Shown here: positions 10,508 through 34,770 of the stretch, one piece after another | How the letters are laid out: each line of letters starts with the position of its first letter | Position numbering within the stretch: position 1 is the stretch's first letter | DNA from: a virus | Taxonomy: Duplodnaviria; Caudoviricetes | Length of the DNA stretch: 64,000 nt | Strand: one strand, 5' to 3' | IMG/VR virus record: IMGVR_UViG_3300043959_000228 | Translations under genes and position numbers: made by a program | Notes under the pieces: generated by a model | What the model was told of the DNA's origin: nothing | Database searches by the model: none | Seen by the model: only the letters and a program-made list of their open reading frames with translations

Positions 10508-11224
10508 ATGGCATCTTGGGGCTTAACCGTTGATAAGAATGGCGTCATGCAATCGAGTATTTGTAGAGCGAAGCATCCCGGTTCGGGACGCTGTAATCAT
10601 TTCGCTCACGTCAAGAACGCCGCCAGCGCACAGAAATATATTGTTTTGCATCAATTACAACCTGATCTGATGAAGGTCGTGAATTACGATAAAGACGTTA
10701 ATTCGCTTCATGAGTCAGTAAAAGACTATATGTCAGATAGAGGAGTTGATGTTGAATACACGCCAACCGAGGATGGCGTCAATATCATTGATACATGGTT
10801 CAATGGAGATCGAAAATTAGCTGAGCGTATTCTTGGAGAGGCGCAGGAAGAGGGCGTCATTCCAAAGATCAAGGCATCTGATACTGTTCGTACTGATATT
10901 CACGATCTTACTGTTGCTGGTGTGAAGGTTGAGGTTGATGGTGACAGATTTGCTGGCATGAATCCCGAGGCCGATGTGTCACTCGACACTGATGTCTGGA
11001 TGACAGCTAATGGATTATCACATAAAATGATTGATGGTGAGGCTCCAGTAACATTAATGGTAGCTGAGGGCGCGGAGGAGGCTCATGCATCGGATAAGAT
11101 TAGATCGAATTGGTCAAAGGATCAATCACTAGATTCTCTCATCTCAGAGGAGCGTAGATCTGATTTCGAACACGCCGGATACGCTAGTCTTCATGGACAG
11201 ACCACTGATCAGATATCTGAGTAA
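10508..11224 (+). CDS. hypothetical protein with N-terminal Cys/His motif
   Basis: GGAGGG RBS places the start at 10508 (MASWGLTVDKNG...CRA...CNHFAH). Confidence 0.7.
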   Translation: MASWGLTVDKNGVMQSSICRAKHPGSGRCNHFAHVKNAASAQKYIVLHQLQPDLMKVVNYDKDVNSLHESVKDYMSDRGVDVEYTPTEDGVNIIDTWFNGDRKLAERILGEAQEEGVIPKIKASDTVRTDIHDLTVAGVKVEVDGDRFAGMNPEADVSLDTDVWMTANGLSHKMIDGEAPVTLMVAEGAEEAHASDKIRSNWSKDQSLDSLISEERRSDFEHAGYASLHGQTTDQISE

Positions 11225-11490
11225 TAGAATCATATCGGTCATAGGAATCCTAGCACGTCGTACATCTTATTAGTTATGTGACGGTTGCTAGGATTCTTTC
11301 ATTGTTAGACCGTTATTCCTCTTGTAGACGCATCTATTTGGTGCATATTTCATCATCTGTCATTTATTATTAGATTACTGATTCAGCGGTTTGCACACTC
11401 ATCATACACATCATTTTGACGGGTATAGACCATGTATCAAGAAGCAACAACTCGTTCGCGAGTATATTTTAAGGAGCAAGTATCATAAGT

Positions 11491-12465
11491 ATGTTAGCAT
11501 CAAATAATCACGCAAGCCCATCCTCACATCGTCAACCATTAGATGCAGATGACATCACCTTAATGCGTCTTGGTCATAAAGCGTCCGATGGATATTTCTT
11601 CACGCTAGATGAAGAGCTCTTCCTAGGTAAAATGATTAGATTATCGAGGACTGATTGTTCAGCGAGAGCAACACGAAGAGCCAGTAGAGCGAAACAATAT
11701 CTTGCACAGGCTAATCAACGATTAGTCTTTAAAATGGCTAATAAAGTCTATTCGAGTTATCCTAAAGGAACGACTCGTGAGGATGTCGTGTCCGCAGGAA
11801 ATCTAGGTCTCAGCAGAGCATTAGAAGATTATGATGATACCATGGGTAATAAATTGTCCACATATGCTACATGGTGGATCAGACATTATATTCAACGATT
11901 AGGTCATAAAATCGCTCGCATTGGTACTCTGCCTGATAGCAAGATTGGTATCATATCTGACGTTAAGAAGGAGACACTCCGCATTGAGGAGGAGGGCCGA
12001 TCAGTAACGAGTGAGGAAATGAAGACGATTCTCCAAACCCATGGTATTGATGAGGCTGAGTACAATAAGATCATGTCATTCAACAATACGCCATTCAGTT
12101 TTGATGCGCCAGTATTCAACGATGATTCTACTGAGGCTTCTGAGGTGATGAATTATGATGATACTCGTAATGAAATTATGGGTACGCCATTGGAGACGCC
12201 TGAGGGATCAGCAATCAAGAATGATACGATCAGCATATTCAATAAGGCCCTATCAGAATTGACGCCACTACAACAATCTCTCATTAACATGTCGTATATT
12301 GAGGATCGGCCTATGGGCGTTAATGGAGAAATTAAAAGAACGCAAGCGTCAATCCGTAGGACTCTTGGCGTCACGAAATCAGTAGCTGAAAGAGAATTGC
12401 AGAAGGGTCTCGCTCATCTTCGCGAACAAATGACATCATATGGCTATGGACCAAATCAGGAATGA
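11491..12465 (+). CDS. sigma-70 family RNA polymerase sigma factor (RpoD/SigB-like regions 2-4)
   Basis: ANQRLV, GNLGLSRA and LSTYATWWIR motifs; SFDAPV; region-4 HTH; AAGGAG RBS. Confidence 0.9.
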   Translation: MLASNNHASPSSHRQPLDADDITLMRLGHKASDGYFFTLDEELFLGKMIRLSRTDCSARATRRASRAKQYLAQANQRLVFKMANKVYSSYPKGTTREDVVSAGNLGLSRALEDYDDTMGNKLSTYATWWIRHYIQRLGHKIARIGTLPDSKIGIISDVKKETLRIEEEGRSVTSEEMKTILQTHGIDEAEYNKIMSFNNTPFSFDAPVFNDDSTEASEVMNYDDTRNEIMGTPLETPEGSAIKNDTISIFNKALSELTPLQQSLINMSYIEDRPMGVNGEIKRTQASIRRTLGVTKSVAERELQKGLAHLREQMTSYGYGPNQE

Positions 12466-12525
12466 CTCTATACTAACCGTTAGATATTCAATGACTGATC
12501 ATAACGATACATTGGGGATGAGTGA

Positions 12526-14802
12526 ATGAGTACATCTGAGGACACGTGGCATATGACGCCTAATGGCCCAACACCATGTCATGCAAAGATGAAGGAACGG
12601 TGTCCATATCGTGACAGGACACACGGGTCACAAAAGGATCTAGAGCGTCAGTATGAATCGGATATGACCATCGTAAATGATCTTAAGCATCGATTGACCA
12701 CAGCTGCACAGGCTTATTATCAGGGATCTGATACCGATTCACCAATGACCGATGACGAATACGATGCTGGTATCAAATACCTCAAACAATTGAATACCTC
12801 GTATCGTCTTAATGATCAGGACATTACGAATCTTATCGACGGTAAGGTAGCGGGTGGCACGACAGTTGACGTGAAGAATGATCACAAAGTCCATCACGAC
12901 GTACCAATGCTATCATTACGTAAAGCCGATAGCGAGGAGCAAGTGACCAGTTATCTCCAGGATATGGAGACTCAAGGAGCCACCGGATTCAAATTACAGG
13001 CTAAACTTGATGGTATTGCCTGCTCCGCAGAATACGAGCAGGGCCACTTGGAGAGGATGTCTACTCGTGGTAATGGTGCTGATGGTGAGGATATGTCATA
13101 TCTCGTGGAGAACCCAGACGTCCAAGTTAAAGGTCTTCCACAACAGTTGAACGGTAAACTGGCGAATGCTGACGTCGAGATTAGAGGAGAGCTATTCCTT
13201 CGACCATCTGAGTTTGATAAGATGAATGCAGCTAAACGAGCCTCAGGAGACGATGAATACAAGAATCCTAGGAACACGAATGCTGGTATCGTCAAACGAG
13301 CGGCTAATGGCATGCATGGAGAAAAAGCTACTCTGCAATTTGTCATGTACAAGATTGTCGGTCATAACATATCAGAGGAGGACCTAGTCAGTTCTGGTGT
13401 GGCCGAAGTATCTAGAGTGACGAAGGAAGAATGGGATAAAACTGGACTTGCTAGACCGGATCAACTGTCCATATCTATGAAGGATAGAACACCTGATGAG
13501 GTCACGAATGAGACCATGAATATCATTAATGCCTTCGGACCAGTTCGTGATGAATTAGATTTGCCAACCGATGGTATCGTCATCAAGCCGATCAATGAGC
13601 AAGCAATGGACGATCAGATGGGATCGAACGCTCATCATCCATTATCACAATTAGCCTGGAAGTATCAAGGAGCGAAGGCTCAGGTGAAAATTACGGGTGT
13701 AAGCTGGACTGTAGGAAAATCAGGTAAGCTGACGCCTACGCTTCATTATGAGCCGACAGCATTCGGAGGATCAATTAACGCGAACGCTACTCTGCATAAT
13801 CCAGCTATCTTAAATGAACTTGGCCTATCCATAGGAGCTGTGGTCGAGGTCGAGAAACGCCATGATATTCTTCCTGAGATTATTCGAGAACGACCTATAT
13901 TCACGCCCAAGGACAGCTCCATCATCAAGCCACCCGAACATTGTCCATATTGTGGATCTTTTATCAGTTCTTCTGATAGATTGTCCTTCTGTCCTAATGC
14001 TAAATGCCCATCACGTGGAGCATACATGTTGAAAGCGGCCGCTAGTAAGGGATCGTTGAATTTTGATGGTATGGGCAATCACCTCATCGAATCTTTACAG
14101 GACAATGGACAGGTGTCAACCATAGCAGATTTCTACGATCTTACTGAGGATTCATTATCAAACACGCCAGTAGGCATAAATGCTGACGGCAAGCCAAAGA
14201 TCTTTGGACATACACGAGCTAAGCATGTCATGGATTTTATCACGGCAAGTAAGAAATTGCCATTTCATAAGGTACTACCAAGTCTATCTATTAACGATCT
14301 CGGTCCTCAAACGGCTAAAGCCATCATTAAGGAATATCCTTCTATTGACGCTATTAGACAAGCGTCAATAGATGATCTTAGCACAATTGATGGTATTGGG
14401 CCTGAGACGGCACGTAAAGTCAAAGAGGGCATAGATGATCAGTGGGACACCATTGAACGCTTGCGTAAAGCCGGATTGCAATTTGAAGAGCACGATGATC
14501 ATGCCATGAATCCTATGCGCGATGACGACCCGGCGGTTAAGGCTGTTAAGGGGAAGTTTTTCAGTATCAGTGGTACTGTGCCATCGGGATATGCTAATCG
14601 TTCGGAGTGGCAGGAATTCGTTTCAGCTATGGGTGGAACTGCTCAAGGATCACCGAATAAAACCACGGATTATATGATCGGTAATCCAGATGATACGTCA
14701 AGTAAGATCATCAAAGCTAAGAAATTAGGCGTGACGATCATATCTCCAGATGACTTCATGAGAGCCGTGAGAAATGGTTCTTTCGAAGATAACGTGGCGT
14801 GA
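12526..14802 (+). CDS. ligA: NAD-dependent DNA ligase with an extra N-terminal Cys/His module
   Basis: MTDDEYD, PMLSL, KLDG, TRGNG, EIRGE, NPRN, DGIVIK, C4 zinc finger, HhH repeats and BRCT. Confidence 0.95.
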   Translation: MSTSEDTWHMTPNGPTPCHAKMKERCPYRDRTHGSQKDLERQYESDMTIVNDLKHRLTTAAQAYYQGSDTDSPMTDDEYDAGIKYLKQLNTSYRLNDQDITNLIDGKVAGGTTVDVKNDHKVHHDVPMLSLRKADSEEQVTSYLQDMETQGATGFKLQAKLDGIACSAEYEQGHLERMSTRGNGADGEDMSYLVENPDVQVKGLPQQLNGKLANADVEIRGELFLRPSEFDKMNAAKRASGDDEYKNPRNTNAGIVKRAANGMHGEKATLQFVMYKIVGHNISEEDLVSSGVAEVSRVTKEEWDKTGLARPDQLSISMKDRTPDEVTNETMNIINAFGPVRDELDLPTDGIVIKPINEQAMDDQMGSNAHHPLSQLAWKYQGAKAQVKITGVSWTVGKSGKLTPTLHYEPTAFGGSINANATLHNPAILNELGLSIGAVVEVEKRHDILPEIIRERPIFTPKDSSIIKPPEHCPYCGSFISSSDRLSFCPNAKCPSRGAYMLKAAASKGSLNFDGMGNHLIESLQDNGQVSTIADFYDLTEDSLSNTPVGINADGKPKIFGHTRAKHVMDFITASKKLPFHKVLPSLSINDLGPQTAKAIIKEYPSIDAIRQASIDDLSTIDGIGPETARKVKEGIDDQWDTIERLRKAGLQFEEHDDHAMNPMRDDDPAVKAVKGKFFSISGTVPSGYANRSEWQEFVSAMGGTAQGSPNKTTDYMIGNPDDTSSKIIKAKKLGVTIISPDDFMRAVRNGSFEDNVA

Positions 14803-14966
14803 TAACGACCACGTTATATTCATCCTACGATGATCTCAGGACGACGGGAAAAGTTGTATTACAACACGATGTCAGATTATCTACGTAAGATTAATGATAC
14901 TGATATCTACTTCATCCTGAACCTATCTAATTACGATAATCAAACAATATAAGGAGTGCAACTACT

Positions 14967-15188
14967 ATGGTTAAGATCTACACGAAACAGCGATGCCCAC
15001 AATGCGAGGCCACGAAAAGGCGGATGCGTAAGAATGGCGTAGATTATATTGAAGAGGACGCCATCAGTCATCTAGACGATTTAAAGACCATGGGCTTCAT
15101 GGCTGCTCCAGTCGTGATGACAGATCAGACGAACTGGTCTGGTTATCGCCCAGATCTTATTGATGCATTAACAACGGTTAACGTCTGA
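14967..15188 (+). CDS. nrdH: glutaredoxin-like NrdH
   Basis: IYTK..CPQC, APVV, WSGYRPD; AAGGAG RBS. Confidence 0.9.
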   Translation: MVKIYTKQRCPQCEATKRRMRKNGVDYIEEDAISHLDDLKTMGFMAAPVVMTDQTNWSGYRPDLIDALTTVNV

Positions 15189-15223
15189 AAAATAATGCCC
15201 TACCAGTGCTATACTCACTGGAT

Positions 15224-15356
15224 TAGATCTAGTTAGGCTCAGAACATGACTCTTTACTCATGTTCTGAGCCTATTCAGATTGGTGCTGGCCGTAAAAGCC
15301 CTCAGATGATACGTTATACTAGACGAGACAAGAATTAGGATTAGACGCGAGATCTA
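15224..15356 (+). repeat. 133-bp dispersed element, copy 1
   Basis: TAGATCT...AGATCTA ends and an internal 15-bp inverted repeat; near-identical copies at 27704 and 43654. Confidence 0.9.
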
Positions 15357-15372
15357 CAGTGATCGTAGCTGA

Positions 15373-15401
15373 TTGACAAAAGATCATTGATAACATATAA
15401 T
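15373..15401 (+). promoter_or_regulatory. consensus primary-sigma promoter
   Basis: TTGACA-17-TATAAT upstream of 15412. Confidence 0.8.
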
Positions 15402-15411
15402 CAATCATATT

Positions 15412-16005
15412 GTGTTAGCTATTATGAAGGAAGAAGACGTGCATCAAATCATTATGAGCCCATCTGATCTTCATATGATCAGTACTCGATCAGTGTCATA
15501 CGCCTGTGGAAGAATGACCTATGTCACTGATGTTATCAAAGATGCGATCATGATGCTACGACCGATACTGGATACATCGTCTATACATGATATCATATCG
15601 ATGGTTCAACACAGAATTGATACGAATACAGCTGGTATGTCATACGATAGGGATATGGTATGGTCATCACTCATCAAATCGTTATCATCTAAAGAATCAG
15701 TATCAACATCAACGGTCAGCTTGCCCTCAGACACGTATTACTCAATCATCAGTTCTGCCTTTAGAGATATGAGCGCTGATTGGCCACATCATATTGACGA
15801 GCATGAGATCATATCCATGACGAACCTGATGACAGCCATATGGCCATATATGAATCTACGATGGAGAACCGTTATGATGAATGATTGGATAGAGCTTAAT
15901 CGTTATGCGCACATATCACTTGATCAACCTCTACGTATGGATGATCGTACTCTAAACGACGATGAATATCTTACTGTCATCGTATCAAGGAATCGGGAGT
16001 GTTAA
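15412..16005 (+). CDS. hypothetical protein
   Basis: 197 aa ORF after a consensus promoter; SYACGRMTYV motif. Confidence 0.65.
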   Translation: MLAIMKEEDVHQIIMSPSDLHMISTRSVSYACGRMTYVTDVIKDAIMMLRPILDTSSIHDIISMVQHRIDTNTAGMSYDRDMVWSSLIKSLSSKESVSTSTVSLPSDTYYSIISSAFRDMSADWPHHIDEHEIISMTNLMTAIWPYMNLRWRTVMMNDWIELNRYAHISLDQPLRMDDRTLNDDEYLTVIVSRNREC

Positions 16006-16702
16006 CATCGTGAATCATAGAATTATCGGATTAGCCACTGGAGGTTTCATCGGCAGTGTGGTTTTCCTCATGCAGCCAGTGGGCGCATCGATATGGACAT
16101 TCGCTGTGGCTTTAGGTGTTGGTCTCGGTATTGGAGCGGTCATCTCACATCTATTCGATGAAACGAAGAATCAATTATCACTATCCAATGTCGCTAAGCC
16201 ATTAACTCGACCATCGTCCTCGTCGATTCGACTGGATAACGCTCAATCATTCCTAGCCATGCTATCTGATAAACAGGGTCAGGTTCAGGATGACGCGGTC
16301 TCTGAGGAGATAGGTGAATTAATAGACGTATCCACATTACTCGTGCAATATGTGCAGAATTATCCGCATCAGAGTACATCGTTAAGCGCGTTCTTATCAT
16401 CGTATTCTGCTCAGACCGAACAGGTTCTCACTGGGTACATCACTGTTGAGAAATATCATGGAAAGAATCTTGACGCTACAAAACAATATACGATATCAGC
16501 TCTTAATGCATTAGAGGGAGCGGCTCAAGGTGTGCTTGACTCTGCTAATGATCAGCAAAGTACAGCTGTTGAGGCTAGCAGTGAGGCTATTAATCGACTG
16601 GCAGCGATGCAAGGATTCACACCTGATGCTGATCATCCTAGTGAGGCATTGCAAGCAGCCGAGGACTTGAAACGCTTAACGGTGAATAAACCATCCGTGT
16701 AA
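15962..16702 (+). CDS. XpaC-like (5-bromo-4-chloroindolyl phosphate hydrolysis family) membrane protein; true start probably about 16010
   Basis: Two TM helices plus a helical domain (FLSSY...YITVE), immediately upstream of telA as in xpaC-yaaN pairs. Confidence 0.7.
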   Translation: MNILLSSYQGIGSVNIVNHRIIGLATGGFIGSVVFLMQPVGASIWTFAVALGVGLGIGAVISHLFDETKNQLSLSNVAKPLTRPSSSSIRLDNAQSFLAMLSDKQGQVQDDAVSEEIGELIDVSTLLVQYVQNYPHQSTSLSAFLSSYSAQTEQVLTGYITVEKYHGKNLDATKQYTISALNALEGAAQGVLDSANDQQSTAVEASSEAINRLAAMQGFTPDADHPSEALQAAEDLKRLTVNKPSV

Positions 16703-16769
16703 GGATGATGACTAATTGCCATCATCCGATGCATAGGATAAAATACATTATCAATCAAAGGAGCAAAGA

Positions 16770-17951
16770 ATGTCAGACACGAATGGCAGTAATATCAGAA
16801 TTGATGGTGAGCAGAAATCCATCTCCATGGACGATCTCATGAAATCATCCACTCAGGGTGATGTCCAATCACAAATCCAGCCTATGAGTGATCCTAGTGC
16901 GAGTCAGCCAACTCAAGTGGAGGCCGTTGACCATCTTACTGATGCCGATCAGCAACAGGTTGATGAAATTGCAAAGAGTATTGATCTCACTAAAAACGAT
17001 CTTGATTCATCGTATGGTGCTGAGGCTCAGAGAACGATGGGTCAATTTGCCGAGTCTATTCTATCCAATACTCGATCCAAGGATGCTGGACAAGCGGGAC
17101 AGTTAATGCAGAGTCTTGTAACGACCATTGACGATTCTCATCTTAGCGGCGTGAAGAAAGTTCCAATTATCGGTAAGATCGTCATGAAGACCGAGGAGAT
17201 CAAACGGCAGTATCAAAAGGTCACACCTCAGATTGACGATATTGTCGATAAGCTGTTACAGTCACAGGCTCAGATGCAGGCTGATATTGCCATGTATGAT
17301 ACGATGTATGATAAGAATCTTGAGCAATACAAATCGTTGAAGATTTACGTGGCTGCCGGTCGTAAGAGCCTTAACGATTTTAGGGAGCAGCAGCTACCAG
17401 CGTTAGAGCAGCAGTCAACGACATCTGGTGATCCTATGCAGGCTCAGATTCTTAAGGACTTCAAGGATAAGCTTGATCGTTTTGAGAAGAGATTAGACGA
17501 TCTTGATCGTATCAGTGTTGTATCACTCCAGAACGCTCCTCAAATTAAGATCCTTCAGAATGCTGATCGAAAGATTGCTGATAAAGTCAATACGACGATT
17601 ACAACGACCATTCCATTATGGAAGTCCCAGATGGTCATCGCACTGGGCTTGGCTCGCCAGAACGAAGCCCTTAAGTTGCAGAATAGTGTTGACGATACGA
17701 CGAATAAGCTGCTGAGTCAGAACGCTGCCGCTCTTCACACTGGAGTCGTAAATGCTGAGAAGGCTAATCAGCGTAGTGTCGTTGATATTGAGACTCTACA
17801 GAAAGTCAACTCTGAATTAATAGCAACCTTGAAGGAGACACAGCAGATTCAGGAGGATGGTCGAAAGAAGCGAGCTGCCGCCGAGGATCAGATGCGAGAA
17901 ATCGAGGCTAATCTGAGAACAGCTCTCATGGATAATATCACATCTGCCTGA
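16770..17951 (+). CDS. telA: toxic anion resistance protein TelA/KlaA family
   Basis: YGAEAQ, RFEKRLDDL, APQIKILQN, TTIPLWKSQMVIAL and VDIETL motifs. Confidence 0.9.
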   Translation: MSDTNGSNIRIDGEQKSISMDDLMKSSTQGDVQSQIQPMSDPSASQPTQVEAVDHLTDADQQQVDEIAKSIDLTKNDLDSSYGAEAQRTMGQFAESILSNTRSKDAGQAGQLMQSLVTTIDDSHLSGVKKVPIIGKIVMKTEEIKRQYQKVTPQIDDIVDKLLQSQAQMQADIAMYDTMYDKNLEQYKSLKIYVAAGRKSLNDFREQQLPALEQQSTTSGDPMQAQILKDFKDKLDRFEKRLDDLDRISVVSLQNAPQIKILQNADRKIADKVNTTITTTIPLWKSQMVIALGLARQNEALKLQNSVDDTTNKLLSQNAAALHTGVVNAEKANQRSVVDIETLQKVNSELIATLKETQQIQEDGRKKRAAAEDQMREIEANLRTALMDNITSA

Positions 17952-17961
17952 TCATAGGTTT

Positions 17962-18004
17962 TTAGGGCCAATTCTTTAGATATGATAACGAGAATTGGCC
18001 CTAA
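17962..18004 (+). terminator. terminator hairpin
   Basis: TTAGGGCCAATTCT / AGAATTGGCCCTAA. Confidence 0.7.
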
Positions 18005-18041
18005 GATCATGTTAGAGGCGGCATCCTGATATATTCATATT

Positions 18042-18818
18042 GTGAAAATTTTGACTTGGAATATCTTGAATAAGACAGATACGTTGTGGGATCGTTTACC
18101 CATGATTATGGAGGTTCTTGACTTTGAGAATCCTGATTGCATCTGTATTCAAGAAGTTCTCGACGCTGGTAAGAACTCCGTTAGAGCAAGTCTTAAACGC
18201 ATAGGATACGACATGAGCAATGGCTCTAAGAGCGCAACAAAAGACCGCTCATACGTTGCCTGGAAGACAAAAGATTATCACGTCATTGATGAAAGAACAA
18301 TAGATGATATTGATGTTGACGCTGTCCGTCTTCAATCCGATACGAATAAAACAATAAGTCTATTATCATATCATGGATTATACGGCGCTGAACACAGTGG
18401 TGGCAGACTTCGAGAACTACGATCAATCATGCATCTTACTGATCACCGTAATCCTGATAGCATTAATGCATCTGAAGATGACGTTTACCTCGCGGGAGAT
18501 TTTAATGCTCTACCAAATGAGATTGGGATGAGAGCTATGAGGGGTCTAGAAGGAGACGCGGTTTACTGGACTGACGCTTTTGACGCCTCGCCTAGGGTTC
18601 GTGGTCTCGAGGATGGAACCTCAATAAGGACAGGATTAGGATTGATTACGGCCTTGAACAATGATGTTCTCATACCCGCTAGTCTTCCCAAGAGAAGAAT
18701 TGACTATATCCTACATCAAGGATGGTCGTATGGAAAACCTGGAGGATTTACCAATCTAAAAGGCGTGAATCGTGATGACTTATCCGATCATGTCATTCTC
18801 ATAGCAGAGACGCTATGA
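18042..18818 (+). CDS. endonuclease/exonuclease/phosphatase (EEP) family protein
   Basis: LTWNI, CIQEV, AGDFN, RIDYI and SDH motifs. Confidence 0.9.
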   Translation: MKILTWNILNKTDTLWDRLPMIMEVLDFENPDCICIQEVLDAGKNSVRASLKRIGYDMSNGSKSATKDRSYVAWKTKDYHVIDERTIDDIDVDAVRLQSDTNKTISLLSYHGLYGAEHSGGRLRELRSIMHLTDHRNPDSINASEDDVYLAGDFNALPNEIGMRAMRGLEGDAVYWTDAFDASPRVRGLEDGTSIRTGLGLITALNNDVLIPASLPKRRIDYILHQGWSYGKPGGFTNLKGVNRDDLSDHVILIAETL

Positions 18819-18980
18819 TCGTATTAGACGTCCTCTGACTCATAGTTCGAGCGCGTTGCTATGAACCAGTGGCCGAGAGCCTGGGTGTATGCCCAGGCTT
18901 TTATTTATTGGTTGACATGATCAGGCCATTCGTGATACAATAGTATCTGTCAATAATTCATCACAGAAAGGTGTCTCATT

Positions 18981-19592
18981 ATGGTTTCAGCAGTATCAGC
19001 ATCGAAGGACGAAATGCTCGTTAAGGACGTCGCCGCAGCATTGAATCTTAGTAAGAGCGTCATTCTTGGTCATATCAGAGCCAAGAATCTTAAAGCATCA
19101 AAGCGTATGGTCTCATATCCTGACAAGTCCGTGAATGGCGTGTCACTCGTCTATCCAACGTACTTCATCAAACAATCTGACTTCAAGACCTTCAAGCGCA
19201 ATCTTGCTCGCGGAGCCGTCAACGAGGTATTCACTGATGGTATCAAGGTGCCAACAGCTGCGAAGAAATATGGTCTGACTCAGAATGAAATTCGCTATGG
19301 TGTCACCTCCGGTAAGATTCGTAAACTCGGCTCTCAGAACCTTCTCATCGTCAAGGAATCTGACGTGAAGAAATACGCTAATGAGAAGAACGAATCGTAT
19401 CTTCCCATGAAGCCACTGCTCAATCGTCTCGCTAAGGTCGGGTACGATGTTAACGACGGTAAGATCAGGTATCTCCAGCACAAGGGATCCATTCGTTCCA
19501 AGGACGGGCTGTCTGACAATTCGTCAACGTCAAGAATCTACTTCAACATCAATGATGCTCTGAAGGTTCTTAGGGCAAAGTCCTCTAAGTAA
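18981..19592 (+). CDS. basic DNA-binding protein with three tandem MerR/excisionase-like HTH units
   Basis: VKDVAAALNLS..IRAKNLKA, VPTAAKKYGLT..VTSGKIR and a third degenerate unit; TTGACA-18-TACAAT promoter at 18912..18941. Confidence 0.7.
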   Translation: MVSAVSASKDEMLVKDVAAALNLSKSVILGHIRAKNLKASKRMVSYPDKSVNGVSLVYPTYFIKQSDFKTFKRNLARGAVNEVFTDGIKVPTAAKKYGLTQNEIRYGVTSGKIRKLGSQNLLIVKESDVKKYANEKNESYLPMKPLLNRLAKVGYDVNDGKIRYLQHKGSIRSKDGLSDNSSTSRIYFNINDALKVLRAKSSK

Positions 19593-19609
19593 TTAATCGT
19601 ACTTAGCAG

Positions 19610-19643
19610 AGTGGGGCGGAACACCAATGTGTTCCGCCCCACT
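19610..19643. terminator. bidirectional terminator-like hairpin
   Basis: AGTGGGGCGGAACAC / GTGTTCCGCCCCACT. Confidence 0.8.
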
Positions 19644-19739
19644 TGTATATGTATTAGCATTTACCATATCAGAGAAGAGCCTATTAGACGGCCTTCTAAC
19701 GAATGATTAGCCTTATATGATATATTTTACGTCAATATA

Positions 19740-20050
19740 GTCATAGTCCGTTAGACCGGCGGTTCTGTGCCTCTCAGTATCATCTTATCAGCATTCCTCG
19801 GCTGATAGGGCCCGAATCAGGTGAGACTACTGGTTCACTGTAACTTCGTGTAGTGGTAATCCCTGTGGCCTTGGTGCATGGCGTCAGTTTTTTGGGGGGT
19901 GGTGGGAATTTGGGGAACCGCGGCACCGCAACGATAGAGCGTGTGCACGAGGAAGCATATCCTAGGAATACGATTTGCATGATCGGTCTGTTAATGCCCA
20001 CCCCACGACCCACCACTAACACGACCAACCATCCAGGACATCCTAAACAA
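19740..20050 (-). ncRNA. candidate structured ncRNA or single-strand/origin element
   Basis: Non-coding gap. A long stem at 19957..20041 pairs fully only on the minus strand (5 G-U pairs); promoter-like TTGACC/TATACT at about 20053..20079. Confidence 0.45.
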
Positions 20051-20128
20051 CTAGTATAGACTATACACACTTAGGTCAAGTATTAATCATACTAGACCAT
20101 CGACGCTAAGTGGCGTATCCCTACATCA

Positions 20129-20575
20129 TTATGCAACGATACTCTTCATGAAGTTGTCATACTGGCGTTCATTATGAACAGTTACGGGATCAAATTTGAA
20201 CATACGTTGTTCTTCCTGCTCATTCCTCACTAAGATAGCTCCAACAGTATGATCAAATTCTATTTGCATCGTTTTTAACGGTGTGCGAACATAAACATCG
20301 ATAATGCCGTCATGAAGCATTAAGGTATCGTGTTCTACTACGTCGACATGATGTTGTAATCTCTCGATCATAAGATTTGCTCTATCTTCAAGAGGCCATG
20401 ACGAAAGGTCTTCTGTTGATAGGACGTCTTCCTTCGCTTCGGGTATCGATGTGTCCTCTGTGTCGACATGGTGTGACGGAACCTGTAAATCTTGATTGAC
20501 TTCAGATGATTCGTCCGTAACGATATTCGCATCGTCTTCGATTGTGTCTTGTCTTTTCTTAAACCAGAATGCCAT
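20129..20575 (-). CDS. hypothetical protein
   Basis: 148 aa ORF with a leaderless start 7 nt after GATATCG. Confidence 0.7.
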   Translation of the reverse strand: MAFWFKKRQDTIEDDANIVTDESSEVNQDLQVPSHHVDTEDTSIPEAKEDVLSTEDLSSWPLEDRANLMIERLQHHVDVVEHDTLMLHDGIIDVYVRTPLKTMQIEFDHTVGAILVRNEQEEQRMFKFDPVTVHNERQYDNFMKSIVA

Positions 20576-20653
20576 GATAATACGATATCAATAGAATAGC
20601 TTTGCGTGAATATCTTCTATACGATATAATAAGTATTACATAGTGAGGAGGTT

Positions 20654-21535
20654 ATGATGGAGAAGACATTAATCGTAGGTGATGTCCATGATAAATGGTC
20701 ATCTATTCTGCCAGAGATTGATACCGTTGTATCTATCCATCGTATCCAGCGCATAGTATTTTTAGGTGATTTGACGAATGAATGGAATATCAGCGCTATT
20801 GACGAGTTTCATGAAATCAAGGCACTTCATGATTGGGTGAAACAGCAGTCAGTGAAAATTGACATTCTCATTGGTAATCATGATGTTTACTACCTATTAG
20901 ACGCACGAGACAATAGTGACGGCGCTGAACACGTCCGTCAATGGTCTCCAGGTCATCATTACGAGCTTAAGGGTGAAATCAAGAGCCTATTAATGAATAT
21001 GGGCGTTCGATTGAAAGCCGCATTAACTCTTACTGTGCATGACGAGGACGTCCTGTTAAGCCATGCTGGTTTTATGAGTAGATGGCTATATGCTCATATG
21101 CCTAATGCTTTTACGGCTAAAGACATTGCTCGTGAGACGAATAGCATGCTTGCTCAAGAGGATTGGCAGGAATTATATACAGGTTTTGGAGATACAAGAA
21201 TGGTTTGCCCGGGACCGTTATGGGCGAGAATTAAAGAGTTGCGGTCAGATGCTGTCACTGGTATACCACAGATTGTTGGGCATACACCCGTGGACACCAT
21301 ATCGTACTTCGAGCCGTTGAATGCTGATCAGCGGGGCCATTGGCCACTTATTTTCTGTGACACATTAAGTCTTTATGGGGATGGTGTCACGCCAATTGGT
21401 GATAAAACAGTTCTTCTCATTAGTGACGATCAGTATTACACGATACCATTAGGTCAACCAGATCAAGTACAGATGTTAGAGCGCAAATCTGACTACCGGT
21501 ATGATGATAGAGGCAAGAAGCATCACGCTCAGTGA
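20654..21535 (+). CDS. calcineurin-like metallophosphoesterase
   Basis: GDVH, FLGD, GNHD, SHAG and GHTP motifs. Confidence 0.9.
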   Translation: MMEKTLIVGDVHDKWSSILPEIDTVVSIHRIQRIVFLGDLTNEWNISAIDEFHEIKALHDWVKQQSVKIDILIGNHDVYYLLDARDNSDGAEHVRQWSPGHHYELKGEIKSLLMNMGVRLKAALTLTVHDEDVLLSHAGFMSRWLYAHMPNAFTAKDIARETNSMLAQEDWQELYTGFGDTRMVCPGPLWARIKELRSDAVTGIPQIVGHTPVDTISYFEPLNADQRGHWPLIFCDTLSLYGDGVTPIGDKTVLLISDDQYYTIPLGQPDQVQMLERKSDYRYDDRGKKHHAQ

Positions 21536-21588
21536 ACGATGAACGATATCTTACCCATATCGTAACAATTTCGATATAGGAGGTCATC

Positions 21589-21897
21589 ATGTTCTCGACT
21601 ATTACATTACTGATCGTATCTGTTTTTCTGTTCATTGTCATATCACCATTACTGTTCTCATCAGTTGAACGGGGTAAGTCAGCGTCATTATTCGCCGTAT
21701 TCATGATTATTGAAGCTGTGCTGTTGGGTATTATCGTCTTCAATGGATTCAAGATCTTCTTAATTGGATTGTCTTTCGTCATATCAATTACTCTGAACGT
21801 AATCATGGCCGTATTGATTATCATTGGCATGATTGCCGCCTATCGTTGGGTTAGAAGAGTAACGAGCAATAGTGATCGTAATCAACAGGAAGATTAA
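21589..21897 (+). CDS. small membrane protein
   Basis: Three hydrophobic segments, AGGAGG RBS, GATATCT at 21545. Confidence 0.7.
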   Translation: MFSTITLLIVSVFLFIVISPLLFSSVERGKSASLFAVFMIIEAVLLGIIVFNGFKIFLIGLSFVISITLNVIMAVLIIIGMIAAYRWVRRVTSNSDRNQQED

Positions 21898-22078
21898 AAA
21901 CTCCTCGCGATTAGGATTTTTTCGTCATTAGGTAGGTACAATAATCATTGTGCAAGTGACTAGTCTTAGATCACTTGACGGTATACTATTATCGATTGAT
22001 TGAGATGGTACGGAGACGCATGGTTATCATGGGTACTCGCTGTAGGTCGAATTGATCCTGATAAAGGAGTAAGTAGCA

Positions 22079-23848
22079 TTGAAGAAGAAAAGAACGACGT
22101 CTATCACGACGGACACTATGTTGTTCTCAGGTGTAGGACTGCCGAAGATTGAGTATGATTTTCATCCATCGTATCCTATTACGGATGTGAAGATACCTTA
22201 TGCCATCGATGAGCCTTATGACGCTGATCATGGTTTGAGGAAATATGACGCTGAGGCCGATGAAGCGATGCGCGAGAGCATGAAGCAATTCGGGTTCATT
22301 GATCCTATCGTCATTACCGAGGATGGATCAATCATTCATGGTGTCCATCGACTTCTTGTGGCCATGGATCTGCAACAGGCGAAGGTGCCTGTTCTTATTA
22401 TTAAGAATTGGTATAAGACCCGTGATGAAACGCAATTCTATAACATCATTGCTAATAAGTTGAATGATTGGTCAACATGGCTAGCTCCGAATGTCGATAA
22501 AATTCTGAGATCAGTTGACGGTGGCGTTAAGAACACGGTTATCAGAGGTGACGATGGCACATTCATTGTCGTGCCTGATGAAGCTGGTGAATATCGCGAT
22601 CTAGCGAAGAAATTAGGTCTCTTCGTTGATGTCATTCCCCATCAATTGTGCGCATCAACTGTTGATCTCTTGTTACTGGCTAAGATGCGTATTAAGACGT
22701 TAGGTCGTAGGTATCAGTATAACGATGAACAGATTCTGTATATTGAGACTCTTAGGGATCAGATTGATACGTATCGGAGAAAGGCAGTTGACGCTGGTCT
22801 TGATAAGACGTCTAATCTTAAGCAGAAACTCGATCAAATGAATATCTGGGATACGAATAATATGAATGATGGTATTGCCGTCGCGCGTATCGTCTTCCTA
22901 CACTCTATTGGTCTTCCTAATGAGCAGATCGCTGCTGAGGTTGGCGTTCCTGTTGATAATAAGGCTGACCGTGAGAAGGCCCGCGAAGCGAATATTAGTG
23001 CATTCATGGAGCAGGTCACCGTTGAAAACGCGATTATGAGATCGTCTAAACGACCGTTCGATCCTTTGCAATCATATGGTTACTGGATTAAGGAAACGTT
23101 AGTGTCTCGTCATGATGTTATGAAGGATCCTGAGGTAGAGGAAGCATTCCATCAGCTAGAATCCTTCAGAGTGTCAGCAGATCAAGTGGCTAACGAGGAT
23201 GGATTGATGCCTCCTTCAACCCGATTGGATCTGTCATCACCTGAGGCTAACGATCTTTTCCATAAGACCGTGGATTTGATTACGAAGAAGATATCGCGTA
23301 ACGATCAGGATGATCTTCCTCAGGCTGTTATTGAGGACTGGGTGAAATGGCCGGAGAAATTGAAGTTCTATGCTAACGAGTGCTTCAGAAACGTGATTGC
23401 TGTGGATAAGAAAGTTCATCCTAAGATTGCTAAGGTTAAGACACCTATGGATGTTAAGACTACACGTCAGACAACTGACAAGGCTTGCTCTAAACTGGAG
23501 TGGAATGAAATTCGCTACCTCGATGCTGTTTGTGATGGATCTATTGAGGAACCAGCCATTGATCTGAATTACGATTTGATTGCTGACCGTAAGGATCTGA
23601 GTGACGATGAGGCCTTAGCCCTGGTCGCCGCTGACGCTAATGCTCGTAGGGATCAGGAGATTGCTCAGTTACGGAAGACTATTGATCGTGAATCAAGCAA
23701 GATCTACGATTCGATGGTTGCTCGTGATTTTAACCAGATTCTCATTGATATTAGGGGTAAGTATAAGAAGGGTCCGTTGAATCTCTTCTCTACCGGACCT
23801 AATCGTGATGGGGACATGAGTGCAGATCCCGCATTGGATAAGAGGTGA
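22079..23848 (+). CDS. ParB/Srx N-terminal domain protein with a large unknown C-terminal region
   Basis: SMKQFGFIDPIVI..DGSIIHGVHRL..A..L...VPV..NKLN; TTG start with AAGGAG. Confidence 0.8.
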   Translation: MKKKRTTSITTDTMLFSGVGLPKIEYDFHPSYPITDVKIPYAIDEPYDADHGLRKYDAEADEAMRESMKQFGFIDPIVITEDGSIIHGVHRLLVAMDLQQAKVPVLIIKNWYKTRDETQFYNIIANKLNDWSTWLAPNVDKILRSVDGGVKNTVIRGDDGTFIVVPDEAGEYRDLAKKLGLFVDVIPHQLCASTVDLLLLAKMRIKTLGRRYQYNDEQILYIETLRDQIDTYRRKAVDAGLDKTSNLKQKLDQMNIWDTNNMNDGIAVARIVFLHSIGLPNEQIAAEVGVPVDNKADREKAREANISAFMEQVTVENAIMRSSKRPFDPLQSYGYWIKETLVSRHDVMKDPEVEEAFHQLESFRVSADQVANEDGLMPPSTRLDLSSPEANDLFHKTVDLITKKISRNDQDDLPQAVIEDWVKWPEKLKFYANECFRNVIAVDKKVHPKIAKVKTPMDVKTTRQTTDKACSKLEWNEIRYLDAVCDGSIEEPAIDLNYDLIADRKDLSDDEALALVAADANARRDQEIAQLRKTIDRESSKIYDSMVARDFNQILIDIRGKYKKGPLNLFSTGPNRDGDMSADPALDKR

Positions 23849-23852
23849 ACTG

Positions 23853-25025
23853 ATGAGCCCAGTATTTATTCCGAGTAAGGGTCGTGCATCTAATTGCAAT
23901 ACCCATCGTAACTTAGAAGCCTTCGATATGCATAATTGGGTGTATATCGTAGAGCCAGATGATTATTGGTCGTATATTCATCGTCTCCGTGATGATGGTG
24001 TCTACATGCCGGAGACGCATGTCTTCGCTTTCGATGTGGACAGGTTCAAGAGTCCTCGAAGTAAGAATCATCCTGATGGATTCGATTATTGTGACGATCT
24101 AGGATGGCGTCCAGGATTGACTACTGGACCTGGACCTGCACGTAATGCTCTGCATCAGCTAGCCATTGATATGGGTATTAAAACCTACTGGATGATGGAT
24201 GACGACATCGTATCATTCTCTATTGACGCCTTCTACTTCCAGAAGAACATTTGGACGAAGGATCTTGCTAATGGTGGCGTGAAGGAACGTCGTATGAGTC
24301 TTGTCGACATTTTCGATTTATATGAACGCTTCTTGGATAAATTTGATAACATTGGACTCGCTGAAATTGATAAGCAGGGATTGGTTCAGAATCATAGGAA
24401 GAACAGTCACTTCTCAGTGAACTGTAAGACCTATACGTGCATCAGATTCAGAACTGATGGCCCAAAGATTCCATGGCGTTCAAGATTTAATGATGACGTG
24501 ATGATCTCACTTGATTATGAGAAGAGAGGATTCGTGAACGTATCGAGCAAGATTCTCTCCTATCAGACACCAGACACACAGAAGCAGGCTGGAGGCATGA
24601 CTGAGGCCTTCCATCAGGAGGGAACGCTACGTAAGGTGAAGTATCTTGTCAAGCAGTATCCAGAGACGACGTTTGCTATTCTGAAATTCGGTAGGATTCA
24701 TCATTTTGTTGATTATTCAAAGTTCAGGCAGAGTCTTGTCAAGAAACTTGGACCCGAGACGATTGAGGACATCATGTCTCTATCGTTTGATCCTGATGGA
24801 TCGTTCCTGCCATATATGGAGGGCGTCACCAGCCAGGCTGATCTTGATGAACATTGGAGAAATATTGATGATGCTCTAATGAGACAATACATTCAGGATC
24901 AACAGGATGCAGGATTCCACTTCGGAGAGGGTAATAGGACGATCATGCGTAAGGAACTGTTAGATGACCCTGAGGCCAACGTCAAACAAGACGATGTCGT
25001 ATCTCAGGACGACGTCGAGTTTTAA
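23853..25025 (+). CDS. GT-A fold glycosyltransferase, phage GREB1/TET-associated (TAGT)-like
   Basis: PVFIPSKGRA, IVEP, GPGPARN, YWMMDDD, WRSRFNDD, TQKQAGGMT and KFGRIHHFVDY motifs. Confidence 0.75.
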   Translation: MSPVFIPSKGRASNCNTHRNLEAFDMHNWVYIVEPDDYWSYIHRLRDDGVYMPETHVFAFDVDRFKSPRSKNHPDGFDYCDDLGWRPGLTTGPGPARNALHQLAIDMGIKTYWMMDDDIVSFSIDAFYFQKNIWTKDLANGGVKERRMSLVDIFDLYERFLDKFDNIGLAEIDKQGLVQNHRKNSHFSVNCKTYTCIRFRTDGPKIPWRSRFNDDVMISLDYEKRGFVNVSSKILSYQTPDTQKQAGGMTEAFHQEGTLRKVKYLVKQYPETTFAILKFGRIHHFVDYSKFRQSLVKKLGPETIEDIMSLSFDPDGSFLPYMEGVTSQADLDEHWRNIDDALMRQYIQDQQDAGFHFGEGNRTIMRKELLDDPEANVKQDDVVSQDDVEF

Positions 25026-25037
25026 GGAGGACGATTC

Positions 25038-25916
25038 ATGTCAAAATCATCGTCAAAGAAATCATCACCAAAAGATGATGTGGCCATATCAGGTTATGCT
25101 GACATATCCTCGAAGGAGGCTAAACAGCAGACCATCATCGGTATCATTGTGGTTATACTGATTGTGGCCATTGTTGGAGGCATTGTCGCTTGGAGGGTAA
25201 TAGCCAGTCACAATGCGTCATCGAGTACTGAGCAAGCGCTCGTCACAGCACAGAAGAACATCACGTCATCAACAGCCGTCAAGCCATCAAATTGGATAGC
25301 TAAGGATGGCGCTATCGTTTTCAATAAGAATGGTATTGTTGAGCATCCTGATACTGCTCTCACTGATAGTGAAAAGAAGATGAAACAGGTAGATGTGTAT
25401 CTCGATTTGAACTGTCCTGGATGTGGCGCTGTTGATCGTAGTCTGAATATGTATTATCAGCAGTACTTATCTTCTGGGAAAATCATTCTGCGGATGCATC
25501 CAATTGCTTTCCTCGATGCTACAAGTATGGGTGATCATTACTCCACTAGATCTGCTAATAGTGTGTATAGGCTATTGGATATTGACCCATCAGCCGTGTA
25601 TTCGTATGTCACCTATCTGTTCTCAGATGGCGTACAGCCAGGTGAGGGTAGCGATTATAAGAAATTCACTGACGAGATGCTTATATCAGCAGCTAGGAAA
25701 GTTGGCGTGACATCAGATAAAGTGTCTGAGTTAACTGATAAGAAATACGCGACGTATGTAAAGAACGTCACATTATCAGTGGTGAATAATACTGATTTAT
25801 GGAGACCTAATGCTCAGCAGTTCTCAACGCCTGTTGTCACTATTGATGGTAAACAGTTAACCTTTGATACCAGTGGCGCATTCGTTAAGCAATTCACCAC
25901 TGCGATTGTTGGCTAA
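25038..25916 (+). CDS. membrane-anchored DsbA/thioredoxin-fold oxidoreductase
   Basis: N-terminal TM, DLNCPGC, HPIAFLD..YSTRSAN and the STP cis-Pro motif. Confidence 0.85.
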   Translation: MSKSSSKKSSPKDDVAISGYADISSKEAKQQTIIGIIVVILIVAIVGGIVAWRVIASHNASSSTEQALVTAQKNITSSTAVKPSNWIAKDGAIVFNKNGIVEHPDTALTDSEKKMKQVDVYLDLNCPGCGAVDRSLNMYYQQYLSSGKIILRMHPIAFLDATSMGDHYSTRSANSVYRLLDIDPSAVYSYVTYLFSDGVQPGEGSDYKKFTDEMLISAARKVGVTSDKVSELTDKKYATYVKNVTLSVVNNTDLWRPNAQQFSTPVVTIDGKQLTFDTSGAFVKQFTTAIVG

Positions 25917-26000
25917 ACGCATAAGGTCGTTAATCTCCTTGTCCTCTAACACGTTATATTGTACTTGTCTAACGTTGTTATCAGTACAAGGAGATTTATT

Positions 26001-27284
26001 ATGGCCGGATTCCATATCACCGCTAACGGCGACGTGAAAAAGTGCACTGCCGAGAAGAGAGCATGCCCGTTACGAAAGTCAAATGGTGATCCTGTTCCCC
26101 ATTATGCTACGGCTGAACAGGCCTATGAGGCGTTATATGCTAAGAAGAGCCTATCCTTAAATGAATCTTTGAAATATGAGGAGAAATACGCTGATTGGGC
26201 GGATAAGGATCAGGACATCGAGAAAATTATCAATAACGCCTTCACCGGTAAGAAATGGATTAAGGCTAAAATTGGTAGTGAGTCAATCACCCTACCAGTA
26301 AAAAGCATCCGACAGTCAAGTAAGAGTAAGAACATCACTGATGCTCTACGTCGTGATTTCGACGCTACCATGGCCGCGCAGAAGGCCTTACCATCAACAA
26401 CTAGGATGGCTACTCAATACGCATCATTATCATCCTTAGAGGGTGATATCAAAATCCTTAAAGCAAGAGCATCAGAGGACGCTATATCAAATGTCATGTA
26501 TGTAAACGCGGCTAATGATGGAGCCTTCCATGTGCAGACATCAGCATCAATTGATAAGGAACGCTTACTCTCCGATCTTGACGCTAAGCAGGTTGACGGT
26601 AAGGATCGAGAAGCGCTGTATACTACTAGTGATAAGGGCTACTCAGTGTCGAAGGTGAAGGCCGCGTTTAACGCCATCATGGCCGAGAAAATACCAAAGG
26701 GATCTAAGGGTGCGCCTGCCGCTAGGAAAGCCGCATGGGATCAAAGCGGATTAGCTCATGAGAACATATCGTACGTGCCAGATCCTAAGATGTACACAGA
26801 CGTGATGGCATCTAATCCAGAGGCCGTGATTGCACCAAGATTCTCCGATGGGCAAGTAGATTCAATGTCCGGATCAACTGTAAGAGCAACCCTATGTGAG
26901 CTTGGCGTTCAACATCAGGCTCTGAAGGACGCTGTTACGAATGATGAGGAACGATTACGTCGTGAAAGCATGAAGACATCGAATAATCCAACAGCTGCGT
27001 TTAAGAATCTCGCCGATCAACCGTCAGGTCACCTTAAATTCAAGGCTTCGAAGAGCACAGTATTAAACGATAAGGCCATTGATGACTTCGCGGCAGCCTA
27101 TGGATTATCGAAGAAGGATCTAAGGAACACGAATCATAATATGAGTGTGGATAATTTGAAACGATTCTCCGATGCTCATGGCATGAGCGCATATCGATAT
27201 CTCAAGCCACGTAAATCTGTGAGTTTCCGTGATATGTCTGATCAGAAGAGTTACGATCAACATAACGTGGTTGCGAGGGGATAA
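26001..27284 (+). CDS. hypothetical protein with N-terminal His/Cys motif
   Basis: AAGGAG RBS places the start at 26001 (MAGFHITANGDVKKCTAEKRACP...H). Confidence 0.75.
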   Translation: MAGFHITANGDVKKCTAEKRACPLRKSNGDPVPHYATAEQAYEALYAKKSLSLNESLKYEEKYADWADKDQDIEKIINNAFTGKKWIKAKIGSESITLPVKSIRQSSKSKNITDALRRDFDATMAAQKALPSTTRMATQYASLSSLEGDIKILKARASEDAISNVMYVNAANDGAFHVQTSASIDKERLLSDLDAKQVDGKDREALYTTSDKGYSVSKVKAAFNAIMAEKIPKGSKGAPAARKAAWDQSGLAHENISYVPDPKMYTDVMASNPEAVIAPRFSDGQVDSMSGSTVRATLCELGVQHQALKDAVTNDEERLRRESMKTSNNPTAAFKNLADQPSGHLKFKASKSTVLNDKAIDDFAAAYGLSKKDLRNTNHNMSVDNLKRFSDAHGMSAYRYLKPRKSVSFRDMSDQKSYDQHNVVARG

Positions 27285-30700: not shown

Positions 30701-30803
30701 CTGTCATCTTGTATACATATGTGTACAAGATCAATATGGTGCAAGATCGTATATGCATATGGTACAATTCCTCATAGTAATAGCATCTATTAGAGGAGGC
30801 CTT

Positions 30804-34627: not shown

Positions 34628-34770
34628 CTAAAAGTTGTAGTAAATTGTATCACGTTTTTTATGGCGGTACAAAAGTGAACTTTTAGCTGTACCTCCTGCG
34701 GAGGGCCGCAGTCCCGAGTAAGATTCGGGTGATTGCGGCGGGAGCTCGACAATTTGCGAGCTCCTCTTTA
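34628..34770 (-). ncRNA. putative omegaRNA (reRNA) scaffold overlapping the tnpB 3' end
   Basis: Four consecutive hairpins at 34666..34764 inside the CDS tail. Confidence 0.55.

Follow-up and report, generated by a model that had tools for sequence, protein, structure and literature searches.

N-terminal modules that diverse effectors have in common, and by which they are routed, are known from phage-packaged proteins, polyvalent proteins and secreted toxins; to our knowledge no such module is on record for giant plasmid-like elements of gut, oral and other microbiomes, and we know of no common, recognisable N-terminal Cys/His domain among the substrates of conjugative Type IV secretion systems (T4SSs). 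For polyvalent proteins, 'header' or delivery domains have been described, ArdC-N on conjugative elements and MuF on phages (Iyer et al., 2017; PMC5512222); there the word header is used for ArdC-N, a zinc ribbon or knuckle is not mentioned, and ART-PolyVal, zincin peptidases, 2H and LPD domains are proposed to be delivered with the invading DNA. That plasmid-encoded proteins pass through conjugative T4SSs has precedent: ParA, ParB, SSB and PsiB of the F plasmid are protein substrates, together with the relaxase and its TSA/TSB signals (PMC8406263). Among giant plasmid-like elements, the Inocles of oral Streptococcus reach several hundred kb and carry their own gyrase, DNA polymerase III, RecD-like helicase, sigma factor, VirB4 and VirD4 (PMC12340149). 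Here we analyse a stretch of 64,000 nucleotides (the window) from the IMG/VR record IMGVR_UViG_3300043959_000228, in which three proteins, one of them a DNA ligase, begin with the same short Cys/His segment (the tag). Most genes of giant plasmid-like elements are uncharacterised, and the tag is a sequence-level handle on one class of them, 3-5% per element.

Three tagged N-termini in the window

The three tags all lie on the + strand. The first occupies approximately the first 50 residues of a protein starting at position 10508 (10508..10657; N-terminus MASWGLTVDKNGVMQSSICRAKHPGSGRCNHFAH) and is followed by an acidic body of ~190 residues (10658..11224) with no match in Pfam, PHROG or NCBIfam. 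The second spans residues 1-47 of LigA, the protein starting at 12526 (12526..12666; N-terminus MSTSEDTWHMTPNGPTPCHAKMKERCPYRDRTH), and precedes the ligase body (12667..14802). The third forms the first 50 residues of a protein starting at 26001 (26001..26150; N-terminus MAGFHITANGDVKKCTAEKRACPLRKSNGDPVPH), the body of which (~377 residues, 26151..27284) again matches no family in these three libraries. When re-read from the translations, the three N-termini agreed with the sequences given in the preliminary description. A regular expression for the motif, run in six frames over the whole window, matches three times and only at these N-termini, each match lying 7-20 residues past a stop codon, where a long open reading frame (ORF) opens. 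The chance expectation is 0.003 matches per window (300 trinucleotide-block shuffles, of which 0/300 reach three), and residue-shuffled ORF N-termini gave zero motif matches in 2,000 rounds; the presence of three tags is thereby confirmed as real and far beyond chance. Each ATG that includes a tag is preceded by a Shine-Dalgarno sequence, GGAGGG at 10508, GGGGA at 12526 and AAGGAG at 26001.

Profile searches single out the same three proteins. With the seed profile no other window protein scores above 8 bits, the top score among 762 reversed decoys being 4.0 bits. A rebuilt profile, composed mostly of proteins from other elements, gives 54.9 bits for LigA, 42.7 for the 26001 protein and 24.3 for the 10508 protein, a control that is only partly independent because that profile already contains the 10508 protein (P0023) and a fragment of LigA type (P0022). 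Behind the tags the bodies are unrelated, as had been claimed: BLASTP aligns the 10508 and 26001 proteins over the tag alone (E 0.92), and the families recognised in LigA start at residue 46-49. The consensus proposed earlier holds as a motif at all three N-termini; its first His is not universal, since the 10508 protein belongs to a Gly-type subfamily and has a fourth His just past the second Cys. This variant is kept by the orthologues of the 10508 protein (P0086, P0107 and L003:7562), including a syntenic one at 39% identity in L003, an ENA scaffold of 124 kb. The AlphaFold2 (AF2) model of the 10508 family is poor, with a predicted local distance difference test (pLDDT) score of 51 from 4 sequences.

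By its domain content the 12526 protein is an NAD+-dependent DNA ligase, LigA. Pfam recognises the adenylation domain (DNA_ligase_aden, 3.9e-39, residues 120-381), the OB domain (DNA_ligase_OB, 2.3e-14), HhH motifs (HHH_2, 1.4e-12, and HHH_5) and BRCT (7.6e-07); subdomain Ia is matched weakly (E 0.011, residues 49-123), a Cys4 motif is visible as CPYCG...CPNAKCP, and phrog_3869 covers residues 46-748 (1.2e-128). The tag lies upstream of all these ligase domains. Canonical LigA has no such extension, as the preliminary description had stated: LigA profiles start at residue 46-49, and the LigAs of L010, G604 and P0019-21 are untagged. Closer relatives at 50-60% identity (P0007-P0015, P0018) retain the tag as H-M-T-P-x-G-P-x-P-C-x-A-x4-C-P-Y-x-D-R-x-H-G. 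The public gene call (P0006, 712 aa) starts at Met47, which has no Shine-Dalgarno sequence upstream, and so cuts the tag off; two further relatives (P0016, P0017) are also called short, with starts inside or just past the tag. Knowing the tag thus corrects gene calls that remove it. Searches of viral, genome and metagenome contigs with LigA found no relatives, and P0016 as query gave only ordinary gut LigAs of ~30% identity; one LigA from a Streptomyces plasmid, with an apparent alignment starting at residue 2, was rejected for having no tag.

The tag as a predicted metal-binding domain, and its cargo

An exhaustive hmmsearch of 1.84 billion (1.84e9) representative proteins with the seed profile (A1, seven sequences) returned 88 matches at E<=0.001. 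The carriers follow the consensus M-x-K-[YF]-H-[IVM]-[TG]-x-[DN]-G-P-x-P-C-x-A-x-x-G-x-C-P-[YLF]-G-x-x-H-[FY]-x-[ST]-x-E-E-A-Q-x-x-[YF]-E, in which the two Cys and the distal His are invariant in the 88-match set (nearly so or invariant overall) and the Gly and Ala are conserved in >90%. The tag begins at most 11 residues from the N-terminus in 75/80 matches, and the bodies behind it are mutually unrelated: it is a portable module with a preference for N-termini. Modelled alone by AF2 from a tag-only alignment of 21 sequences, the 26001 tag (model ma61fe3819df6) reaches a pLDDT of 85.4, with strands at 4-6 and 12-14 and a helix at 38-49. As predicted, then, the tag is a domain of ~45 residues in which a beta-hairpin is combined with a Cys-x-Ala-x(4-9)-Cys knuckle and with a helix that has the His in front of it. 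A shape search of the ESM Atlas found the same fold at the start of unnamed proteins of 266-277 aa (template modelling (TM) score 0.71-0.72 over 45-46 residues, root-mean-square deviation ~2.0) and matched it to a Zeta_toxin/AAA_33 cluster at a TM of 0.58; a feature search of the same atlas with the tag gave scores at noise level. The tag is also a charge dipole: in 127 copies net charge averages +2.8 for the knuckle half, which is positive in 94%, and -1.8 for the helix half, which is negative in 80%.

The putative metal site is best read from the position of its histidines. Most copies are of a His-type, with a His on strand 1 ([YF] or W followed by H, [YFW]-H), as in LigA, where the putative ligands are His9 (12550), Cys18 (12577), Cys26 (12601) and His33 (12622), and in the 26001 protein, where they are His5 (26013), Cys15 (26043), Cys22 (26064) and His34 (26100). 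In three sub-lineages the strand-1 residue is Gly or Ala and a His stands instead at +2/+3 after the second Cys, in the forms C-R-F-H-x-x-G-S-H, C-N-H-[IV]-x-H and, in the 10508 protein, C-N-H-F-A-H; there the putative ligands are Cys19 (10562), Cys29 (10592), His31 (10598) and His34 (10607). The strand-1 His and the His after the second Cys are mutually exclusive among 104 domains (raw counts 86/0 vs 4/10, Fisher p 6e-11). Once five assignments that the regular expression had made wrongly were corrected by eye, 91 copies have the strand-1 His alone and 13 the post-Cys2 His alone, with zero exceptions, the Fisher p belonging to the raw counts. Such complete exclusivity argues for one four-ligand metal site in which one ligand has moved, and the most likely occupant of that site is one zinc ion, coordinated by two Cys and two His. 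The earlier proposal of a portable zinc-type tag is borne out in its portability by the many carriers, and its metal part is made probable by the conserved Cys/Cys/His, the covariation of the His positions and the confident predicted fold.

Some carriers repeat the module. A group of small proteins of ~150 aa (P0027, P0030, P0060, P0064 and P0028) consists of a tag, a coiled coil and a second tag; one protein has two tandem Gly/Ala-type tags followed by a body, and tag-only proteins exist (canonical example P0097). Proteins with two tags could be bivalent adaptors, or competitors for the partner of the tag.

As far as the searched libraries go, the domain appears to be absent from them. Neither in the window proteins nor in 85 and 28 further carriers is the tag covered by a model of Pfam, NCBIfam or PHROG; the tag profile against PDB sequences gave a best E of 1.5; and structural neighbours were at Foldseek E>1 and VIA-align Z<=4.5. 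Domains this small are hard to match, so that a remote kinship with a described zinc-finger family may escape such searches. Kunitz/BPTI-like rows among the VIA-align neighbours (Z<=4.5) lie below the noise level of that tool and were rejected, since they reflect a generic small hairpin-plus-helix. In tblastn searches, nothing real was found with the 26001 tag in PLSDB plasmids or with the tag-only P0097 in GenBank phages and PLSDB, which would mean either that the tag is too short for BLAST or that it is absent from cultured records. A word-seeded search of 5.8 billion proteins with the 26001 tag region returned its own protein alone.

Most tagged bodies belong to no family, and those that can be recognised appear to be establishment and conflict enzymes. 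Besides the DNA ligase of the window, Pfam finds among 85 carriers Zeta_toxin and AAA_33 P-loop kinases, PI3/PI4-kinase-like proteins, LPD1, LPD34, Tpt1/KptA, pentapeptide repeats, YqaJ, glutamine deamidase, HD, RelA/SpoT, HNH, PD-(D/E)XK and nucleotidyltransferases; further matches are to minor-head-type proteins, a RecE-like exonuclease, endonuclease VII and tRNA nucleotidyltransferase. Two large relatives of the window's element, G604 and G605 (see below), add HEAT repeats, 2H-SAK, LigT, ART-PolyVal, RNase_T, two RNA-ligase families, M78, M48 and DUF6782 peptidases and HD_4; SH3 also occurs among the tagged bodies. This cargo overlaps strongly with the domains assigned to proteins delivered with invading DNA (PMC5512222), and the tag ties 3-5% of the genes of an element to its establishment and counter-defence repertoire. 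With a T4-type RNA ligase, phosphoesterases of the 2H and HD types, Tpt1, a nucleotidyltransferase of CCA type and Zeta/AAA_33 P-loop kinases, the cargo also seems to hold a complete RNA-repair kit, which may serve as counter-defence against anticodon nucleases.

Host elements and distribution

The 26001 protein is on record on a contig of 491,046 bp, which we class with the giant, conjugative, plasmid-like elements whose hosts are of Gram-positive type. Genes of the window include those for GyrB, GyrA, a sigma-70-type factor, LigA, TelA, a ParB-N/TAGT pair, a Pif1-like helicase, TnpB, CpaB- and CpaE-like proteins, DnaE, an SNF2 helicase and a transfer-messenger RNA (tmRNA). Its VirB4-like ATPase ORF (61467..62690, +) is 36% identical over 386 residues to an ORF of G604 that matches Pfam AAA_10 at 168.7 bits, a homology that would mark the element as conjugative. 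L003 is syntenic with the window over 1.8-14.8 kb (GyrA, YdjM, a tagged gene of 232 aa, sigma factor, tagged LigA) at 31-58% protein identity and with a guanine-plus-cytosine (GC) content of 59% vs 44%; among its other genes are those for IF3, a clamp-loader subunit and a CCA-adding enzyme.

The carriers that the profile search returned are all metagenomic and fall into tiny clusters. Their contigs encode their own DnaE, clamp-loader subunit, SSB, LigA and RecD2-like helicase, together with T2SSE and CpaE-like ATPases, a VirB4-like AAA_10 protein and a sortase with SpaA pilins; tag-bearing DNA ranges over 35-64% GC. Searching 185,579 species genomes with a back-translated DNA pattern gave one real carrier, Bifidobacterium vansinderenii, and the pattern also found four large IMG/VR contigs. 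In six-frame searches of these, G604 (345 kb, inverted terminal repeats, 100%) has 12 tag matches, G605 (231 kb, direct terminal repeats, 100%) 9, G603 (179 kb, linear, 72%) 10 and G602 (89 kb, provirus, 31%) 6; with a hidden Markov model (HMM) run on our own gene calls, G604 and G605 have 14 tagged genes each, ~3-5% of their genes, nearly all with the tag starting at residue 1-13. The preliminary description had proposed that an HMM scan of related replicons would find many N-terminal hits on diverse proteins, and this is what the scan returned: many more carriers, with N-terminal tags and diverse bodies, confined to mobile elements.

G604 and G605 share 18/56 window genes at 23-45% identity, among them gyrase, YdjM, sigma factor, an untagged LigA, helicases, DnaE and the VirB4-like ORF at 61467-62690. 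Both are labelled complete viruses in IMG/VR (CheckV 100%). Both carry a VirB4-like ATPase with a strong AAA_10 match, a T2SSE ATPase and SpaA pilins, and G602-G605 have no match to Terminase_6N or to the HK97-type Phage_capsid, the two families searched; an AAA_10 match together with the lack of a terminase or capsid match makes G604 and G605 look like giant conjugative plasmid-like elements despite their viral label. No VirD4-type (T4SS-DNA_transf) match was found in G603-G605, which have an FtsK/TcpA-like ATPase instead. In G605 this TcpA/FtsK-like coupling ATPase is a single gene of 671 aa (L103:7275-9287); in G604 homologous pieces lie ~80 kb apart (L118:2543-3193 and L122:12496-12873). 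G604 also encodes a ClpB/ClpC-type AAA+ protein (L121:6455-8467, -; AAA_2 9.4e-56 plus ClpB_D2-small), which may unfold proteins of the element itself.

Among sampled genomes the tag is rare and patchy, occurring in 4/201 genomes of the B. vansinderenii family and in 0/400 others across the phylum. It sits there in a few integrated chromosomal islands of Bifidobacteriaceae, which carry integrases, methyltransferases, GmrSD, HNH, CHAP, SpaA and DUF5906 and in which the replication genes of the giant elements were not found. Tags cluster: all five of B. vansinderenii (G001) lie within 66 kb on one contig and all four of G091 on one contig, 9/14 tagged genes of G604 fall within 43 kb, and G605 has tandem paralogues.

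Some further features of these elements stand beside the tag. The tmRNA gene of the window (30348-30703, +) matches Rfam RF00023 at 89.6 bits, and ARAGORN reads its tag peptide as ANTSSAFALAA. At 22079-25025 (+) a ParB-N-like protein precedes a TET-associated glycosyltransferase (TAGT, 3.9e-22), and a TnpB-like ORF (Cas12f1-like_TNB) lies at 34628-36178 (-). In L008 (1519-9830) DnaE is found as two ORFs, a PHP/alpha N-part and an alpha/finger/HHH part, between which stand a TnpB-like gene and a pol III delta'-like gene.

Possible functions and likeness to known systems

We tentatively favour a reading in which the tag is a common docking handle. With its basic knuckle face and its acidic helix it would let one shared partner recognise every tagged protein. 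The partner we favour is the DNA-transfer pathway, be it the coupling ATPase or the outgoing single strand; tagged enzymes would then reach the recipient with the DNA and could act before the genes of the element are expressed. An address tag for co-transfer, as the preliminary description had suggested, is plausible and fits the cargo repertoire. The more specific claim is rather doubtful, namely that Gram-positive-type conjugation has a pathway for protein co-transfer which recognises its substrates by the tag, and by which a giant element would send a defined set of ~10-15 tagged enzymes into the recipient with its DNA. The tag provides a defined 45-residue probe for asking how Gram-positive conjugation selects the proteins that accompany the DNA, and which these are.

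Several observations weigh against docking on the transfer route. No partner was found, nor a 'reader' gene co-occurring with the tags among the compared loci, which are small fractions of the elements, and no VirB4-type or FtsK-type ATPase was detected near the tags in the Bifidobacteriaceae islands. Known T4SS signals are internal or C-terminal (PMC8406263), and conjugative substrates must unfold (PMC5826034). Some small proteins have their second tag at the C-terminal end or in tandem, which together with the tag-only proteins indicates that a free N-terminus is not required. Zinc binding itself is predicted from the sequence and a modelled fold, and nucleic acids are the substrates of many enzymes that can be recognised in the cargo, as would also be expected of a simple substrate-binding finger. 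A docking prediction between a G605 tag and the cytoplasmic part of the TcpA/FtsK-like ATPase scored 0.00 with an uncertain partner fold and speaks neither for nor against.

That substrate-binding finger is the main and a serious rival, if on balance somewhat unlikely: the tag could be a nucleic-acid-binding zinc knuckle that takes enzymes to nicks, DNA or RNA ends or tRNA within the producing cell, with no role in transfer. The knuckle half is basic in 94% of the 127 copies, and the bodies include DNA ligase, YqaJ, HNH, PD-(D/E)XK, Tpt1, HD and nucleotidyltransferases as well as RecE-like exonuclease, endonuclease VII, tRNA nucleotidyltransferase, RNase_T, two RNA ligase families, 2H-SAK and LigT; double-tag proteins would make sense as bivalent binders, and tags in islands without a detected transfer motor would be accounted for. 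However, ART-PolyVal, the M78/M48/DUF6782 peptidases and glutamine deamidase have no obvious nucleic-acid substrate, and the same goes for the PI3/PI4-kinase-like, RelA/SpoT, HEAT, pentapeptide and SH3 bodies; LigA has its own zinc finger, HhH and BRCT, and its close relatives work without a tag; and the tag has no sequence or fold match to a known nucleic-acid-binding finger. Were this rival true, the tag would be a new nucleic-acid-binding zinc finger on ligases and repair enzymes. A variant joins both ideas: the knuckle might bind the transferred strand and the cargo hitch-hike on it, by analogy with what is proposed for ArdC-N.

The shared partner might also be an intracellular hub outside transfer, such as a replisome or nucleoid complex, a sigma factor or RNA polymerase, or an AAA+ unfoldase or protease by which the level of the carriers is controlled. 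A folded tag with a conserved bipolar surface would suit such docking, the elements encode their own replication and transcription proteins (and G604 its own ClpB/ClpC-type AAA+), tag-only and double-tag proteins could compete or bridge, and in the Bifidobacteriaceae islands no T4SS motor would be needed; yet no candidate hub co-occurs with the tags across the compared loci, those islands are without the replication genes of the giant elements, and effector-like cargo better fits action in a newly entered cell than housekeeping, so that we hold a hub to be unlikely. Clustering of tagged genes, seen in G604 as 9/14 within 43 kb and in G605 as tandem paralogues, would fit an N-terminus without common function, a selfish or neutral cassette spread by recombination of paralogous 5' ends and carrying, for example, a shared translation-initiation region. 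This last explanation is already disfavoured and highly improbable: conservation at the protein level across elements of 35-64% GC, the invariant Cys/Cys/His, the compensating His positions and the confident independent fold point to purifying selection on the structure, not on the DNA.

Compared with known small zinc modules, the tag resembles CCHC knuckles, C2H2 fingers and the PARP-type finger of DNA ligase III in being a short hairpin-plus-helix with two Cys and two His, and in one case it is, like the last of these, fused to a DNA ligase; its spacing of His-x9-10-Cys-x6-11-Cys-x2-11-His, with no CxxC, matches none of them. For the host element, as context and not for the tag, the nearest likeness is with the Inocles: by gene content their kit of gyrase, Pol III, helicase, sigma factor and VirB4 is also present in the window and in G604 and G605, and the window's element, at hundreds of kb and with gyrase, Pol III alpha, a RecD/Pif1-type helicase and a sigma factor, is Inocle-like in these respects (PMC12340149). 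The Inocles differ by a GC content of 24-32%, against 44% in the window and 35-59% in its relatives, and the searched passages of that paper make no mention of a shared N-terminal module. The substrates of conjugative T4SSs are similar in that plasmid maintenance and establishment proteins enter recipients after recognition by the coupling protein, whereas the signals described for them come from Gram-negative systems and consist of internal domains or of C-terminal contacts (PMC8406263).

The closest parallel is with polyvalent proteins. As in these, mobile-element effectors of otherwise diverse architecture have one N-terminal module in common, the two cargo repertoires overlap (ART-PolyVal, zincin peptidases, 2H, LPD1/LPD34, nucleases), and the role proposed for the header is likewise to couple cargo to a DNA-delivery route. 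ArdC-N and MuF themselves are unrelated to the tag in sequence: ArdC-N has no match on the window proteins (Pfam, E<=1), and neither is among the listed top Pfam families for 85 and 28 tagged proteins. The tag is ~45 residues long with Cys/His ligands, and its predicted fold is one hairpin and one helix, whereas that of ArdC-N is helices followed by a nested four-strand hairpin. A polyvalent protein is a giant multidomain polypeptide, whereas the tagged effectors are separate small proteins, each bearing a tag of its own. If the co-transfer reading is true, the set of ligases, RNA-repair kit, ADP-ribosyltransferase, peptidases and kinases would be a 'distributed' counterpart of polyvalent proteins, and the proteins sent with the DNA could be read from sequence by one zinc-knuckle motif.

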